Part shown: positions 1-30,185 of the stretch, piece after piece
Position numbering within the stretch: position 1 is the first letter of the stretch
Layout of the letters: the number at the start of each line of letters is the position of its first letter
Assembly (NCBI RefSeq): GCF_004010195.1
Contig: NC_057752.1
Span: forward strand, 10,395,737-10,427,943
Origin: Chiloscyllium plagiosum
Taxonomy: Eukaryota
Reading direction: 5' to 3'
Length of the DNA stretch: 32,207 bases
Made by a program: the position numbers and the translations under genes
Notes under the pieces: generated by a model
Database searches by the model: none
What the model saw: the letters and a program-made list of their open reading frames with translations, nothing else
Told to the model about the DNA's origin: nothing

Positions 1-390
1 GAAGAGCTTCTGTGCAGAGGAGATGACCTGGGGGGTGCAGTGAGAGAGGGACTCACTGAAACCTTTGTAGAGGGAGAAAGAGAGCTGCTTCAAGGAAGGC
101 ATCCTTGTAAGAGGATTCGCAGTAGGTTGAAATCTGAGGAGAAAGTGAGGTCTGCAGATGCTGGAGATCAGAGATGGAAATGTGTTGCTGGAAAAGCGCA
201 GCAGGTCAGGCAGCATCTAGGGAACAGGAGAATCGACGTTTCGGGCATTAGCCCGAATGCCCGAAGCCCTGAAGAAGGGCTAATGCCCGAAACGTTGATT
301 CTCCTGTTCCCTAGATGCTGCCTGACCTGCTGCGCTTTTCCAGCAACACATTTCCATCTCTGATCTCCAGCATCTGCAGACCTCACTTTC
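1..390 (-). mobile_element. 5' end of a Penelope-like retroelement with an inverted terminal (pLTR-like) duplication; the element continues off the left edge
   Basis: Minus-strand ATG at 100-102 opens MPSLKQLSFSLYKGFSESLSHCTPQVISSAQKLF, which runs off the window. It is preceded by a 114-bp inverted repeat pair (141-254 / 277-390) containing GATGCTGCCTGACCTGCTG and a CTGAAGA...GAAAC hammerhead-like core. An inverted pLTR with hammerhead motifs is characteristic of Penelope-like elements; family recognised from memory. Confidence 0.65.
141..390. repeat. 250-bp near-perfect palindrome (114-bp arms, 22-nt spacer)
   Basis: 141-254 is the reverse complement of 277-390 except one G/T pair (235/296). 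This explains the mirror-image ORFs 40..363(+) and 168..521(-). Confidence 0.97.
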
Positions 391-689
391 CCTTTAAAGG
401 GAAGCTTACTGGGACTGTTTGAATTCAGAACAGCATATGTAAGTCTAGCTGGAAAGACTGAGTTCTGTAGGGATTCTTTATTCTGGTCTTTGTGTTTCAT
501 TGTGTAATTTTGTGTATACATTTTTGTTTTTAAAATCTATTAGTCAACCTAGCTAGCTTCTGGGTAACTTTCACTGTACACTTACCGAAACAAATTGCAA
601 AGTTATGGTCTGGGGCTGCCTGCTTAATGTTTTGAGTGGTCTGGTCTAGGCCATAAACAAATGATTTTGCCTTCGAATGTGAAAGTTGA

Positions 690-7045: not shown

Positions 7046-7254
7046 TGTTTGTCTTTTTGACAGTCTGGATGAGACATCTTCTTTCAATTTTATTACAAAG
7101 TCACTTGGAGCATTTCAGCTGTGGCTAGCATGCTAATCGCGTCCCCACATAACTGGACTTTGATCTAGTGTAATTATATTCTAAATGTTCACACCATGTC
7201 AAATCAGTGTTGGGAGCAGCTGGGGCTAGTGTGGAACTCCAGAATGGCATAGGC

Positions 7255-7430
7255 AAATTGGGGTAGGTGGCAGGTGACATTCAGCAGAGAAGTGATGTAA
7301 TGCACTTGGCTGGGAAAACATTGAAAGATGATATAAAATAGGGGGTGCAGGAACAGAGGGATCTGGGTGTATATGTGCATAGATCATTGAAGGTGGCAAG
7401 ACTGGTGCTGAGAGCAGTTAATAAAGTACA
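7255..7430 (+). mobile_element. CR1 LINE fragment
   Basis: ggaacagagggatctgggtgtatatgtgcatagatcattgaaggtggcaag (the EQRDLGVYVHRSLKVA motif of CR1 ORF2). Confidence 0.7.
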
Positions 7431-7914
7431 AATGTCCTTTACAGGGCATGCTCTAGAAAAAGCCTCACTAAATTAGTTGAGCATGATTTCTCTTTCACAA
7501 AACAGGAGACTTGGATAAGTTCAAGGTAATCAGTTATGTCTATAGTGATTAGTTTATACTATTTTCCCTGAAACAACTGTTAAGCTAACTGGTCAGTAGT
7601 TTCTGCCTCCCTTCCCTCTTTTTGAATAGTTATTTTCCTAATGGAAAGGAGCTCTTGCTAAATTGAGTTTCAGAAAATTAAAACTGACGTAGCAACTGTT
7701 TCACTGGTAACTTCCTATGGTGTTAAAAGATGTGTTGCCGATCTGAGAACTATACCAGTATGTAGCAAGCAATACAAAACATCCAGGCATGCTCAAGACA
7801 AGGGACAAGTGCTGTTCAGACCAACCAAGTGTCAGGAAATGACCATCTCCACTTGACCTTCAATAGCCTTAGCATCACTGAGTTCCCACATTATAGCAGT
7901 AGTTAACAACAGAT

Positions 7915-22523: not shown

Positions 22524-22652
<129 letters not shown>

Positions 22653-22969
22653 CTAGAGGGAAAAGCAAAATGGCGGTTACATATCAGAATATGTTTGGCG
22701 GTTTTTTTTTCAAATATCTTAAAGTTGGAAATGACTGTTGGCATCAATGTTAATACCCCTGCTCCAGGTGTTGGTCACTTCAGGAGTGTGGCCTGTGCAG
22801 TGCACTCTTAATCCATTCGTTGAGCAGGAGCAGCACGAATCTAAGTGACCCGGATGCAAGGTTGCCCAGGAGGAGAACAGTGGTGTTGCACTGCTTCTCA
22901 ACACTTTGGGCTACCAACCCAGGCACAATGACCTGTGAATAGCTGGCACAGGAAGCCAAGAGTAAATTC

Positions 22970-23600
22970 GGAGGCCATGACAGAGCACTGCCATCGGCAA
23001 TTCAATGCCAACATCTAGATGCATTTTTTATGGCATTGCCAGTGACCAAAGTGTCGAAGATGTTTTGATATTTCTTTGTTCAGGTGCTCCCAGGGGTGGA
23101 CCAGGCCACAGGAAGTGACAGATGTATTATTTTATAGCTTCGAGCAAGCCATGGCACGAACCACAAACCAGCAGCAGCAGCAACATTGTGTGACCAGGCA
23201 TCAGAATCGGACCTGGCTGCTGGGTTTCACTCTCTCCAGGGCTCGCAGTTGGCAGCCCCTGTCCACAAGACTGTGGCCGACATGAACACAAAGGGAAGTT
23301 TTTCCATCAGTGTGGCAGCCCACCTCTCAGCAGAGAGTAACAATAGACTCCCTGAGAATGCTCTTCATGGCTTGACTTCAAAGCAGTTGTGTTTATGCCA
23401 GCTTTACTTGAAGAGGGCAGATGGCTCCTGAGAGACCCAGAGCACTCTTCAAACTGGGTTCAAGCTATCCATGCAATAACCACAGCTGGACCGTGGGTGT
23501 AATGAGGGTCTAGTTCATTACAGAACATACCACTGGGATCTTAAAGCAGGTATCTCCACTGATTCGGCCATACCTTACAATACAGCCATCCCAGGTTCTC
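22970..23600 (+). pseudogene. Degraded PIF/Harbinger (HARBI1-like) DDE transposase
   Basis: Collinear motifs across frameshifts: AMTEHCHRQF (~22974), ALPVTKV (23033), QEVTDVLF (23109), DQASESDLAAGF (~23192), NTKGSFSISV (23285; cf. NRKGxHSxNVQ), RLPENALH (cf. RxPGSxHD), GRWLLRD (23416-23436; cf. GWLLGD), ITEHTTGILKQ (23517; cf. IExxxGxLKxRF), TLQYS (23572). Confidence 0.75.
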
Positions 23601-23629
23601 ATAAATGACATTAACTATTGCTATGTCAG

Positions 23630-23990
23630 TTTGTCTCATTTGATGGCATTTCATTCATGAAATCCAAAGGTTATGAGTTCCTGCATTACTCTTGAGCACA
23701 TGGTCAAGGTGAACACCTCAATGCTGTACTGAAGGACTGCTGAACTATTCAGGCAGATGGAAAAGGTTCATAGAACCACTCAAAGTAAAGGAGGGAATGC
23801 TCCTGGCATCCTTGCCATTACTTATATGTCTCAAACAACAGATTAACTGGTCACGCATCTCATTCACCGCTTGTGCGGTCTCCATGTGCTGAAAGGTGCC
23901 TGCCATGTTTGCCAAGTTGACTGTACTTTAGAAGCAACTTTATTCACAATGTAACACTGGGAATAATGTGAGAGGAGTGCGTGCAATTTT
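23630..23990 (+). mobile_element. Old SacSINE1/Deu-like SINE inserted at the 3' end of the transposase remnant
   Basis: aaggttatgagttc...gcacatggtcaaggtgaacacctcaatgctgtactgaagg...aacagattaactggtca...gcctgccatgtttgcc. Confidence 0.55.
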
Positions 23991-24360
23991 GTTTTTGCTT
24001 TTAGTTTGCAAAGATATCTTACCAACAAGGAGGAACAGAACGGCAAAGACATGGCAAAACAAAAGCTGGAGAGTGTGAACATAGAAGCTGCTTTTGCAGG
24101 GAAAGCTGGGATATGGTCTTCAGTTTAAAGGTGTCTTCCAGTTAGTACTGTTGCTGTCCATGTGCAGAAACGACACATCCCTAAGCCAGCTGCAGTTGCA
24201 CTTCCTTCTGCAGATCCTCAAACCTTAATGGAGGACGTTGTAAAATTCTGACTGAAATTAACAAAAACTACAGATATTTACATAACGCCTTCAGCATAAT
24301 CAAATGACACTGACCCAGTAAAGAAACACTCAGACCAATGTAAAAATCAAATCCAGTGTT

Positions 24361-26231
24361 TTTATTCCAAGCATTAGGTGTTCAGTGAATGTAGTCAGCT
24401 TTGTACCTGTGGTTTGATGTAGTACAGAGTGCCTGGCTGAGCCCGTCTTCTCCTCAGCGATTCCCTCGGAAGGAGACAGCATGTTGTCTGACTGCTCAGT
24501 CCCACTGTCAAGTTGGTGGAACTGTCGTGCACAGGACTTCCATGTCGTAAGGACTGCAGTCGCTCTGCAAACCGGTCATCATGACTCTGGATGGTCTTGC
24601 TGCTTGCACCTGTTTAGTTTCAGGCACACCTACTGCCACTTGTAACGGGATAGTTAATGGCCTGGATCATTCGAGCCAACATCTGCTCATTAACTGCTCC
24701 CCTCCACTGGGCAGTCCTGCAAAGTGTCCACTGAGTTGGCAATGGAACCTTGGGCATCTGGAAGGTCTGTGAATCCTTACTCAAAATGTTGTCTGCATCC
24801 AGTCTCCAAGTGTGCTGAAGTTAGCAAAAAAGAGCATCCTCCAGACTGGAGTCAAAGGTTTCTATAGTAGTCATGTGAACATTCATGAGAAATGTCTGCA
24901 CTACACCAATGACTTGAACTCTGGAAATTCCCTGCAGATGCCACTCCAATTACCAAACACTGTGTGGACAACTGCAGTGCAGACAACCACATGCTCATGC
25001 CTGTACAGATCGAGGTAGCGTACTCCTCCACAATCCTTTCAACGTCTTGCAGTGAATGTTCCAAGCACACTCCTGGCTCAGCTGGATGATCTGCTCAGAC
25101 AGCAATTTCTGCTGGTCAGCAGATCCCACGCGGTTCTCCATGCTGGACTTTTGCTCAGCAAATGCCTGGTCTGCTACAGCCAACATCACTTGCTCCTCTT
25201 CACCCGTGAGTTGTGACTTACCCTGCAACCCTTCCTGTACCTCACCACCTACATCCAAAGAGTTGTGTAGCTGTTCTTGACGTTTGACAGAGAGTGATTG
25301 TGATGCACAGTGCTGTGAACAGTTGCCTTTCTCACAGACACTGCTTCTTGCTATACTCCATTTCTGTGAAAAGAGAAGATAATGTGTCATTCTGTGGTAT
25401 TACCGGCATTGTTACTTAGCTTGAGCATGTATCTGAATGACAGTCATTCAACAGGACAAAAGGGTACAACATGAACATTAAAGTACTAGCCATGAACTCG
25501 TTTGAAGCTTGCAGCTTTGTCGTCCCCCACTCCCTCTATACTCTCCCCGCGTAATATTTCCAAAGTGGCGTTCTTGGACAGGGTAGGGGACTTGTATTGG
25601 CTGGGTCCAGTGCAGCACTGCTCTCGCTGATTGAAGGCCATCTTGTCCTGCAAGTAGAAGAACAGTATTGGTAGATTGAATGTACACAGAGCACTGACAA
25701 TGTCATGCAGTTGTACAGTTTCTGTGACATACCAGATATTCTCATTAACTGGGTTAACCCTGTTCTGTTCACTTCTAAACAGTTATTGTCTAAATCCCCT
25801 TTTGGAATTGTTGCAGTACACACAAATTTGCAGAAGCACTTCAGAACTACATGTGTCTTAAACATATATACCCCCATTCATTGCCTTTGTATCTCTTGGC
25901 AGTGCTGCACTGGTTCACCTCCTCATGCCAGTTTTCATAGAGAAGCACAAAAGGATGAGAAGGTTGCCAGGGTTGACTTTCTTGCATGTCCAGTTATGGC
26001 AGGTGCGTATTAATATTATTGACTTACCTTAGCCGAATTCTTCAGATCTGCTGGCCACTTGCTGAGATCTTGGAGACAGCGTTTACGTGCTCCACGATAT
26101 CTTTCCATACCTGCTGAATCAGGTGTCTGAGGAGTGGCCCTCTGTGCAGGTACATGTTCGCCCAGTCCTTTTATTAAAGCCTTTAGCGCCTGGTTGTCAA
26201 AATGGTACTTCCTGTGCCTGGTACAGTCCAT
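24361..26231 (-). pseudogene. Degraded, intron-containing Myb/SANT-like (NAIF1/MSANTD-type) gene of a Harbinger element
   Basis: Exon 1, 26231-26028: RKYHFDNQALKALIKGL, then in the +1 frame VWKDIVEHVNAVSKI, then KWPADLKNSAK|gtaagt. Exon 2, 25647-25491: cttgcag|DKMAFNQREQCCTG...TLEILRGESIEGVGDD. Exon 3 from the acceptor at 25364 has coiled-coil-like residues (LEHSLQDVERIVEE). AATAAA at 24361-24366. Confidence 0.72.
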
Positions 26232-26324
26232 TGTCCGCAGAGGATTGCTGTGAAAATAGCTGCACTGGGCTGACACGCGCAATTTCAATGCTTTAAGCAG
26301 CTGCTTTAGCGCTGAACCTACACC

Positions 26325-26485
26325 ACCAAAAACAGATTAACTCACCATTCACCTCATTTGCTGTCCGCTAATTAGCTGCTGCATTTGCCAATATCATAGC
26401 ACTCCGAAAGTAAACCATTGCTTTTTAAGCGCTTGAGATGTTTCTGTGGGACATGGTAAGGCAGAATACAAACCTTTTTTTTCTA
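26325..26485 (+). mobile_element. 3' fragment of a SacSINE1/Deu-like SINE
   Basis: aaacagattaactcaccattcacctcatttgctgt...gctgctgcatttgcc...taagcgcttgagatgtttctg. Confidence 0.5.
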
Positions 26486-26856
26486 TAAAAACAAAAGTGT
26501 GCTGGCAATGATTATCAATGCTTTGCTTTTATTGGATGCTGCATTTTGCGATCATTATAGCGCATGTTATCTCGCATTGAAAAGAAGTTCAGCCAACTTG
26601 TGCTTCATGGCCCAATTAAACCTTAATTTGTGCAAAAACAGTGATTGCTAGACTTTAAGGTGCTCTTAATTATAGCCCCTGACCAGTATCTGCTGGCTGA
26701 TGGTGTGAAGTACCTAGTTTTATGAAACATTCACCACATGGTCTAACAGAATAAATGTCAATGTACACAATACAGTTCACAACAGTTTTCAGAGTTTGAG
26801 TCTTGGTCATTATCTTGAAAATGTTAAGCTCCCACGTATTGTGATTTTATAACCAC

Positions 26857-27065
26857 CATGACCCAGTACTCAACATGATCTAGTACACAACATAATTACT
26901 ATTTCAATAAGTTAGGTACAGTGCTCAGTGAAACAATAAGACTCAACATGCTCCAGTACTCAAGTGTGATCCAGTATGCATTCAGAAGCAGTATTCAGTG
27001 TGTTCCACAGCAAGTTGCGATCCACCACACCATATGAAAATTACACAGTGATCCAGCAGACAATA
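26857..27065. repeat. Degenerate 17-bp tandem repeat (CATGATCCAGTACTCAA-like)
   Basis: catgacccagtactcaa / catgatctagtacacaa / cataattactatttcaa ... catgctccagtactcaa / gtgtgatccagtatgca. Confidence 0.6.
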
Positions 27066-27094
27066 TGGTTCACTGCACAGGGCGTAATGGAACA

Positions 27095-29830
27095 TGCTAC
27101 AGACTTGATCTTATATTATATAGTCTCCAGGGTTGGTGCCTATATTATATAATTCATAGGGTCAGTCTCTACACTGTATATGCTATAGGGTTAATCTCTG
27201 TGCTATGTATTCTTTAGGGCTGGTCTCTGTACGTTATAGCCTATAGGGCCAATCCCTATACTGTGCATTCAACAGGGCTGGTCACCATGTTGTATGGTCT
27301 ACAGGGCTGATCCTACTACTGTGTATTCTATAAAACTGGCCTCCATGTTGTATATCTCTACACTATACAGCTCATGGGTTCAGTCTCTGTACTGTACATT
27401 CTGTAGGGCTGATCTCTAAAACTGCATTCTTTACGGCTGCCCTCTAAACTATGTATTGTATGGAGTTATTTTCAATACTTTAAATCCAGCAGGGCTGGCC
27501 TCTCTACCTTGTATTGCAAAGTGCGAATCTCTACTCTGTACATTCTACAGGGCCGGTCTCTGTAACATGTTCCATTGAGATTGTCTCTATTGTGTACATT
27601 CTATAGAATGTTTCCCTATTCTGTAAGCTGTGTCGGGTTAATATCTATACTACAAAATCTATTGGTTTCTACACTGTACATTTTATAGGTCTGGTCTCTA
27701 ACTTGTACTTTCTACCAGCTGGTCCATGTAACATGCAGAGCTGGACAATGTGTACATTTTATTTACCTTCCATTGTACATTCTACAGGATAGGATTTGTG
27801 ATGTATATTCCATAGGGTTGATCTCTGTATTGTACATTCTACAAATCTGCAACCAGTGTTATACCCTACAAGGATGGACAGCATGTTATACATTCTGTGG
27901 GGCTGGGTGTATAATGTACATTGTACAGGGCCATTTAATGTTATGTGTATTCTATGGGATCTGCCTCTATCCTACACATTCAATGGCACCTTTCTGCAGG
28001 GCTTACACTGTACATTCTAAAAGGCCAGATCACATATCATATATTCTAATCAGGCCATTCTATACTGTACATTCTACAGATATGAGCCCTATACCTTACA
28101 TTCGACACAGTTGGTCTCTATACTATACATTCTACAGAGCTGGACTCTATGCATTCTATTAGCTGGTCTCTATACTGTACAATCTATAGGTATGGTTTCT
28201 ATGCATTCTACAGGACTGGCCTCTGTTCTATATAGTTTATAGGGCCAGTCTCTGTTCCATAGCGACTAAAAGACTGGTCTCTACACTGTACATTCTATCT
28301 GGAACCAGATTCTATAATGCACAATCTTTAGCATCACTCTCTATATTGTAGATTCTACAAGGCTCATCTCTGTACTATATATCTTATAGGGCTAGTCGTG
28401 ATCCTGTAAATTCAACATGACCTGCTTGTATAAAATGTAGGGATGGTCATTATACTATCTTGTTCTACACTATAATGTAGGGCTGTTTTCTGTTGCATGC
28501 ATTCTCTAATCTCTTATTTTAAATTTCAGTAGACCTAATATAGATGCCTGGTTCAGACTGAATTCTGTTCTCCAAATAAAAGTATGATGCTGGTTTCTTT
28601 ACTATCTATATGCAAGCGCTGTTCCCATTTTGTATTGATTTGAGGGTTGCTTTTACACTAAATGCATGACAGGACTGTTTTTAAATACTATATACCATGG
28701 AACTGGTCTCTATGTTGACCATATTACAGGGCTGCTCCCTATGTCATACATATTACAGGAATAGTCTTTGATAGCATGATGATGAATTTAGATTACAAAT
28801 CTGTTCTTTATATTAATTACTATGCATTACAGCCTATTGAACACATTGCATGCATTACTGGGTGATATTTATATTGTATTTGTATGTATAACTCATTAGA
28901 GGCCTCTTACCCATTCTCATAATTATATGCAAGTTACTACCCTGTTTAAAGGGCTTTTCTCCATATTGCGTATATTATAGTTCTGTTTCCTTTGCTACAT
29001 ATATTACATGGTTGCAGGATTGGTCCCTACATTGCAGAAATTACTTGTGAGAGTCCACAGACTGCCTGTAATATAGAAGTATTATTTCTATAAATATATA
29101 CTGTCAATATTATAGACTGCTCCCTATTCTGTATAGAGAATCACAAGGTTGACAGATATACTTTCGGTATTTGTTTAATCTCTATTATTTTATACTGCAG
29201 GGCCAGTACCTGTATATTACAAGTCTGTATTGGACTTTCTGTATTACTGGCTTTGTTTCTAAATTTTTACATTGCGGACTGGCCTCTTTATTTTCCAGGT
29301 TTAATTACATTTTAGAAACGTTTCTGTATACTGTGTTTACTATAGTCCTGGTATCTGTCCTATAGTAATTAAGCTGGAGTCGATACTATGCAAGTTGGCC
29401 TCCAAGTTGTACACATTGGGTTAATATCTAATGCCTTCGTTAAAATTCTTAAATTGTACATTTTAAGTGACTGGTCTCTATTCTATGTTGGTTTCTTCTG
29501 TATATATTAAAGAGCTAGCCGCTATTTGTCTTAACACTCTTGATATTAGGCTAGTCTCTCTCTTGTAGTATTACAGTGCTGGTTTCTGTATTGTATTTAT
29601 ACCATAGTTTGTTTTTTATCCTGTGTATAGTCAGGACTGATCTCCACCCATTCTCTCTATTGCACATATATGGGAATGCTCACTTCCATATTCATTGCGG
29701 GACTATTTTTTTTTGTACTGTATATGTTACAAACTACTCTGTATTACAGGGCAGATGTCAGTACATTATATTTGACAGAGCAGATCTCAGTGTTGTATCT
29801 ATTACAGGACTACTTTGTACTGCATATCAT
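27095..29830. repeat. Degenerate 29-bp minisatellite (consensus ~CTACAGGGCTGGTCTCTATACTGTACATT), about 2.7 kb
   Basis: Consecutive 29-nt units from 27241: ctatagggccaatccctatactgtgcatt, caacagggctggtcaccatgttgtatggt, ctacagggctgatcctactactgtgtatt. Regular to about 28400, increasingly decayed to about 29830. Confidence 0.85.
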
Positions 29831-30065
29831 TTCGTTCTGTTTTAATATTATTCAAGTCATTTTGCATGTTCCATTTGACTTCTATAATTAACTCATTTTT
29901 GCTAACTGCTATTAATGGGTTCTACCGAGTCAATAACTCTCTGGATCTTACGTGTATGGTCATTGTTGAGTCTGATTAGTTTTGCCATTACTGAGAGCAC
30001 AACAGTAAGGTGATGTTGGGACTAATTACACTTTAAATGCAAGGAGTCAGTTTTATGTAATGTCA

Positions 30066-30185
<120 letters not shown>

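Follow-up and report, generated by a model that had tools for sequence, protein, structure and literature searches.

The window, a stretch of 32,207 bp from Chiloscyllium plagiosum lying at G000:C43:10395737-10427943, carries on its minus strand a fibrillar collagen gene, recognizable by its Gly-X-Y exons and a C-propeptide exon, and one intron of this gene holds the decayed remains of two convergent genes of Harbinger type. The intron measures 7425 bp (22653..30077, minus strand, GT..AG) and is followed downstream by a Gly-X-Y exon at 22545..22652; in run X4, a contig of 59 nt runs directly from the end of exon 30078-30185 into this exon. A sequence-only reading of the window had placed the element in a 7.4-kb intron of col2a1; the intron and the fibrillar collagen host stand, and the name col2a1 is our presumption from the human exon peptides, the sequence analysis itself indicating only a fibrillar collagen.

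The transposase and Myb/SANT remnants

The transposase remnant lies on the plus strand in two parts. The first (22770..23621) has an approximate start at which no ATG was identified, and contains about six frameshifts and two to four stops by alignment; the second (23992..24144, end approximate; nhmmer E=4.9e-6) encodes the acidic C-terminal tail as far as the former stop. The gene had been read at 22970-23600, where it is indeed present, but its extent is longer, beginning about 200 bp earlier and resuming at 23992 to end near 24144. Window 22803-23620 matches the intact transposase-like open reading frame L002 (nhmmer E=5.7e-25), its sole match among 41 loci, and in nhmmer against L002 the alignment covers 22815-23621, with an envelope from 22776 (E=1.7e-28). 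A frameshift-aware profile built from 39 elasmobranch proteins scored 98.9 on the remnant versus 35.2±3.2 for shuffles (maximum 42.7, n=25). In a Pfam scan of six unjoined window fragments there was no transposase match, and Myb_DNA-bind_5 reached just E=0.14; the DDE_Tnp_4 type of the remnant is assigned by homology to L002, which itself matches DDE_Tnp_4 at E=2e-37. The second catalytic Asp (WLLRD, 23422..23436) and the catalytic Glu (TEHTTGILK, 23520..23546) are kept, while the block that runs from AGF...QG to MN.KG (23216..23296, plus strand) has lost IDCTH and with it the first catalytic Asp, all three as originally noticed.

Between the two parts lies an insertion of about 370 bp (23622..23991, plus strand), at which the alignment of the L002 query ends at base 1047 and resumes at 1052, so that just four query bases are missing across the gap. 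The gap is regarded as an insertion because the majority sequence of 60 younger copies in this genome reads through uninterrupted; an intron in the transposase was considered and ruled out, the relatives being uninterrupted and the stretch being a dispersed repeat. A profile of this repeat matches window 23739-23931 and nine places in other loci (1.2 Mb), the window matches being partly circular since the window had served to find the profile seeds. A second copy of the repeat lies upstream of the Myb start (26310..26437, plus strand) and may extend to about 26500; five further short contigs of run X16 fall on 26305-26394. The repeat may alternatively be the right arm of the element itself, although it occurs in both orientations in unrelated loci. 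The insertion may resemble the 3′ end of SacSINE1/Deu-SINE. SINEs of sharks, that family included, are treated in the accessible part of PMC5499810.

The partner remnant occupies the minus strand in three exons: exon 1 (26028..26231), with a Myb/SANT-like domain and two frameshifts; exon 2 (25491..25647), an open frame whose donor reads GC; and exon 3 (24600..25363), a frameshifted, helical C-terminal region with an approximate 3′ end that matches exon 3 of the intact gene L037 (nhmmer E=2e-18 to 5e-20). Its introns of 380 and 127 bp are bounded by GT..AG and GC..AG, respectively, and AATAAA at 24361..24366 (minus strand) is a candidate poly(A) signal. With a profile built from 11 host Myb exons, the Myb exon scored 85.3 versus 30.5±4.0 for shuffles (maximum 41.8, n=60), and the other 23 of the 24 window tiles scored 34 or less; the reference proteins for the Myb gene carry PF13873. 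The sequence-only reading is borne out in its three-exon Myb/SANT-like gene, in the poly(A) candidate, in the convergence of transposase and Myb, an arrangement that recurs in other copies, and in the frameshift-aware search that it proposed, with both genes far above shuffles. Cluster searches beyond the window yielded generic Myb and collagen clusters only.

With about six frameshifts in the transposase, about eight in the Myb gene, stops in both and an incomplete DDE triad, the element is dead: it has neither two intact open reading frames nor a full set of catalytic residues. The view of it as an ancient autonomous Harbinger holds insofar as the remains are those of a Harbinger-type element whose two genes converge, but the copy is dead today, its first Asp deleted. 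Terminal inverted repeats (TIRs) with a TWA duplication had been anticipated near 22700 and 26300-26700; no TIR pair and no target duplication were found in the window element. Two candidate right termini, at 26595 and 26678 (26585..26678, minus strand), emerged from a loose motif scan in which chance is possible, with no left partner found; the one at 26678 is preceded by CAG, which may also be chance. Across 1.285 Mb of loci, the motif scan yielded three candidate terminus pairs and no consistent target duplication. The left arm was probably deleted, because the transposase starts only about 120 bp from the host exon, whereas two younger subfamilies conserve at least 700 bp 5′ of the transposase start.

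On its gene content, the fossil is a two-gene PHIS element of Harbinger type with which both Harbinger and Nuwa appear compatible. In the accessible text of Han et al. (2015; PMC4482050), Harbinger is defined by a TWA target, NuwaI by CWG and NuwaII by C|TNA|G, and the group within PHIS is left undecided here because Harbinger and Nuwa differ in target site and carry the same two genes.

Intact relatives in sharks and rays

The nearest relatives of both remnants are intact genes elsewhere in the genome: the transposase-derived L002, an intronless open reading frame on contig C1 (G000:C1:69.92M), and the three-exon, Myb-derived L037 on contig C22 with its paralogue L036. Orthologues of all three occur in both sharks and rays. 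Those of L002 reach 91% identity in catshark and 88% in sawfish, the catshark orthologue having lost two catalytic residues; exon 3 of L037 reaches 89% in Heptranchias and 78% in Narcine, and is also present in skates. An intact open reading frame conserved across distant species is one mark of a domesticated gene; all three show it and are probably such genes. No Myb gene was found within about 14 kb of L002; L037 has no transposase closer than about 13 kb, and none was found on 20 of the 25 kb of the L036 contig. NCBI annotates these genes as "putative nuclease HARBI1" or, for two species, as "nuclear apoptosis-inducing factor 1"; a search with exon 3 of L037 returned 14 proteins, and no bony vertebrate is named as the source of any of them.

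L002 is one of five intact, intronless Harbinger-type transposase open reading frames (L002-L006; C1:69.92M, C17:57.24M, C37:6.09M, C11:67.42M and C88124), of which the other four are 47-56% identical to it. All five are conserved in other sharks and some in rays, four of the five are without at least one catalytic residue, and on this sequence evidence they are likely domesticated genes; further clades of the same kind appear in other species. Candidate partners for L003-L006 are further intact Myb exons that share the splice point (L038-L042; C47, C27, C37 and C39); among them, the Myb exon of L042 is 81-100% conserved across sharks.

The transposase had been described as HARBI1-like. It is not especially so: proteins of L002 type score 149-191 with the window transposase, and one of the HARBI1 clade 43. 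When this genome was searched with a bony-fish protein of the HARBI1 clade, identity did not exceed 43% in the scored candidates (116 of 3720), and the HARBI1 clade contains none of the elasmobranch proteins compared; canonical HARBI1 may be missing, unassembled or unscored here.

Beyond these intact genes, the genome holds many Harbinger-type fossils of several subfamilies. PF13359 gave 144 matches in the 150 scored of 1321 first-look candidates in the 3.56-Gb assembly, six of them long intact open reading frames, and PF13873 gave 11 matches in the genome search. A downstream minus-strand Myb (score of at least 45) accompanied the transposase at 5 of 60 transposase-anchored loci and a same-strand Myb at none; at 57 Myb-anchored loci the transposase was convergent in nine, upstream in one and on the same strand in one. 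The majority sequence of the 60 younger copies retains D, D and E in its uninterrupted transposase reading frame, and the apparent termini of the younger families start GGG. Neither a profile of the 60 younger fossils nor three Myb-side subfamily profiles matched the window element. Some remnants lie close together: L072, L075 and G000:C37:30.82-30.93M are three alike transposase remnants with frames of 183-243 aa within 110 kb, probably a tandem duplication, and at L088, L117 and L082 at least two transposase remnants lie within 9 kb, some of them inverted, suggesting nested or clustered insertion.

Origin of the intronic copy

The explanation we favor, and hold to be probable, is that the fossil is a broken two-gene Harbinger-type copy from the lineage that gave sharks and rays L002 and L037/L036. 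It rests on the resemblance of both fossil genes, since each is most like those intact genes. When 144 transposase proteins were ranked against the window, four of L002 type came first (149, 148, 136 and 122), the next scoring 89, and at the DNA level the window scored 87 bits with L002, 17 with L005 and nothing with L003, L004 or L006; ten younger fossils, for comparison, gave 42-126 bits with all five. Over ten references, the ratio of best to second lineage was 1.69 for the raw window sequence and 2.17 with the insertion removed, and was at most 1.18 in every one of the 30 younger fossils, out of 60, that were scored in this way.

On the Myb side, exon 3 of the window matches that of L037 at E=5e-20 and that of L036 at 4e-14. 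The joined exons align with L037 over 326 columns with 106 identities, eight frameshifts and three stops, at a score of 205 versus 39±6 for shuffles (maximum 57, n=40), and the intron positions and phases of the remnant are those of L037. By type, the scores were 179-211 for L037, 176-188 for L036 and 48-83 for other Myb genes, so that L037 and L036 are, as far as their sequences indicate, equally eligible as the partner type of the fossil. The C-terminal part scored 118 versus 51 or less in 60 control loci, which were gathered with another Myb type as query and are consequently biased away from L037.

Phylogenetic placement is less sharp. In the protein tree, the window branch is 1.9-2.1 long and unplaced within the chondrichthyan clade; approximately unbiased (AU) tests rejected the window with neither L002 (p=0.38) nor L005 (0.37) nor the younger fossils (0.24), and rejected only its grouping with the HARBI1 clade, at p=0.045 in a quick tree with a long branch, that clade being labelled HARBI1 presumptively, from NCBI names. 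DNA identity of the fossil to both L002 and L037 is about 60%, and at third codon positions its identity to L002 (0.53) falls within the upper end of the range among the fossils (0.40-0.54). Nor do its non-coding parts clearly match L002 or L037 (p 0.04-0.47). The tree and the low identity would suit an ordinary dead copy of an unsampled Harbinger or Nuwa family, for which L002 and L037, themselves from different families, would simply be the nearest slow-evolving references; so would the scoring of 109-150 of thousands of first-look candidates, whose numbers are not copy numbers. Such an origin is nevertheless unlikely, as the two-fold score margin is absent in 30 other fossils and the Myb match is full-length, exon 3 included, whereas Myb proteins of different Harbinger families are reported to match in only a short part of the domain (PMC9392472, in the part accessible).

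Searches of the genome with window pieces, as DNA and as protein, found no full sibling copy, returning the window itself and three matches of 46-60 bp. Two loci gave partial matches to the window copy only, L201 (in the exon 3 region) and L213; the latter is the sole sibling candidate at the DNA level, and as a protein is not L002-specific (ratio 1.12). This lack of siblings and of ends might point to a pseudogenised duplicate of a co-domesticated two-gene host locus, moved by segmental duplication rather than transposition, and insects show co-domestication from one insertion (accessible text of PMC9710019). We consider a segmental duplicate improbable, more so than an unsampled family: the element lies within a collagen intron, at 120-135 bp from a host exon, its flanks are without match to the L002 or L037 loci, and both genes are equally decayed.

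Less probable still is a chance neighbourhood of an L002 retrocopy and an unrelated Myb remnant. The L002 reading frame is intronless, which makes intron loss uninformative, and the 5′ side is truncated, as such a retrocopy might be; yet the convergent layout is typical of the family, the Myb remnant keeps both introns, and there is neither a match to the L002 UTR nor a poly(A) tract after the transposase.

In two relatives, 1.8% and 2.3% different, contigs carry the element, complete or almost so, in this position beside the same exons. Both gene remnants show 1-2 bp indels in these relatives (12 of 21 indel rows shown), and in run X17 the element differs at 95 of 4098 positions and the sequence beside it at 7 of 403. 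In run X4, which is probably RNA, the join from exon 30078 to 22652 reaches a depth of 4503 versus 9-15 over the intron, and none of its contigs, which show presence only, has a joint inside the element; single-cell run X22 contributed two reads from about 2% of the run. The relatives' indels and the exon join fit neutral decay of an intronic passenger. Exaptation of the remnant by the collagen gene, for regulation or alternative polyadenylation, could draw on the Myb exons lying on the host's transcribed strand, with sense-strand splice sites and AATAAA present. It seems very improbable, however, as run X17 divergence is no lower inside the element than beside it and includes frameshifting indels, and the exons in the run X4 contigs are joined directly.

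Under descent from the L002 and L037/L036 lineage, the copy would have inserted during the active period of that lineage, at about the time of the shark-ray split or earlier. Loss of its left arm, arrival of the retro-repeat and neutral decay would have followed, the copy being removed from transcripts along with the intron; in each of several other insertions of the same lineage, selection would have preserved a single gene. Active elements work through both proteins: the Myb protein carries the transposase into the nucleus and binds the element ends, and cutting and pasting is done by the DDE transposase; HARBI1 likewise binds NAIF1 (both in the accessible part of PMC9392472). By analogy, the L002 protein is predicted to bind the L037/L036 proteins.

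Known two-gene systems and Harbinger elements of cartilaginous fish

A DDE transposase with a separate Myb/SANT gene is likewise the constitution of PIF/Harbinger elements of the PHIS superfamily, whose mean length of about 4.1 kb compares with a coding span of about 3.5 kb in the fossil (PMC4482050, accessible part). The fossil differs in being dead and about 40% diverged from its nearest relatives, with the first Asp deleted and the TIR and TWA duplication not found. NuwaI and NuwaII carry the same two genes, and NuwaI TIRs start GGG as do the younger families here (same source). Those younger families (60 copies) share the layout of the window copy, which their profile misses.

Among host genes, HARBI1 and NAIF1 are a mutually binding transposase- and Myb-derived pair (PMC9392472, in part) and serve as the model for L002 with L037/L036, although L002 falls outside the HARBI1 clade, sharing 43% identity with its member P0105. 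Insect co-domesticated PIF/Harbinger pairs also recruited both genes, in a model of one insertion kept in place (PMC9710019, accessible text), whereas the intact genes here are unlinked and joined only in the fossil. Plant HDP1-HDP2 and ALP1-ALP2 similarly illustrate recurrent recruitment of both genes, as far as the sources available on them go.

A single dead intronic transposon is ordinary. Surveys, however, as far as their accessible text goes, describe sharks as being without PHIS elements (Han et al., 2015; PMC4482050) and elephant shark as being without Harbinger, with a call for testing of other cartilaginous fish (Etchegaray, 2022; PMC9179366), while this genome contains many fossils of several subfamilies; for whale shark, PIF-Harbinger is already listed (PMC8455134, in the part seen). 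The consulted part of PMC9392472 treats Harbinger-derived genes shared with humans. We found no paper on elasmobranch-specific Harbinger-derived genes, in a search mostly outside subscription journals, and repeat tables for whale shark may list the family. What the sequence-only reading lacked is the tie, drawn from sequence comparison, of the fossil to three intact elasmobranch genes, a set that is apparently undescribed.

Once unlinked, a transposase gene and its cognate Myb gene are difficult to match up, and a two-gene fossil offers a direct pairing hypothesis. Here it concerns conserved elasmobranch genes labelled HARBI1, NAIF1 or uncharacterized, and is open to binding and co-expression tests. 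A wider proposal, more tentative than the origin of the copy and somewhat less probable than its converse, is that sharks and rays possess an undescribed Harbinger-derived gene family (at least five transposase-derived and several Myb-derived members), with the fossil as a witness that L002 and L037/L036 were partners and may still form a nuclear complex.

Some further observations concern the window and related genes. The collagen intron also contains a degenerate 29-bp tandem array (window 27137-28980 and 29742-29807). Rfam and tRNA scans were empty. Window 131-393 is a MITE-like fold-back repeat that matches a common repeat profile on both strands. Fragments at 689-925 and, with E=6e-7, at 7225-7467 are similar to an open frame in L033 and are presumably LINE reverse-transcriptase tails. 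A distant type of transposase is represented by L007 (G000:C31:21.59M), an intact 374-aa DDE_Tnp_4 reading frame with 26% identity to L002. In Pristiophorus japonicus, the annotated 523-aa protein P0048 combines Myb/SANT and transposase regions with D, D and E, and is either a real fusion or an annotation join.
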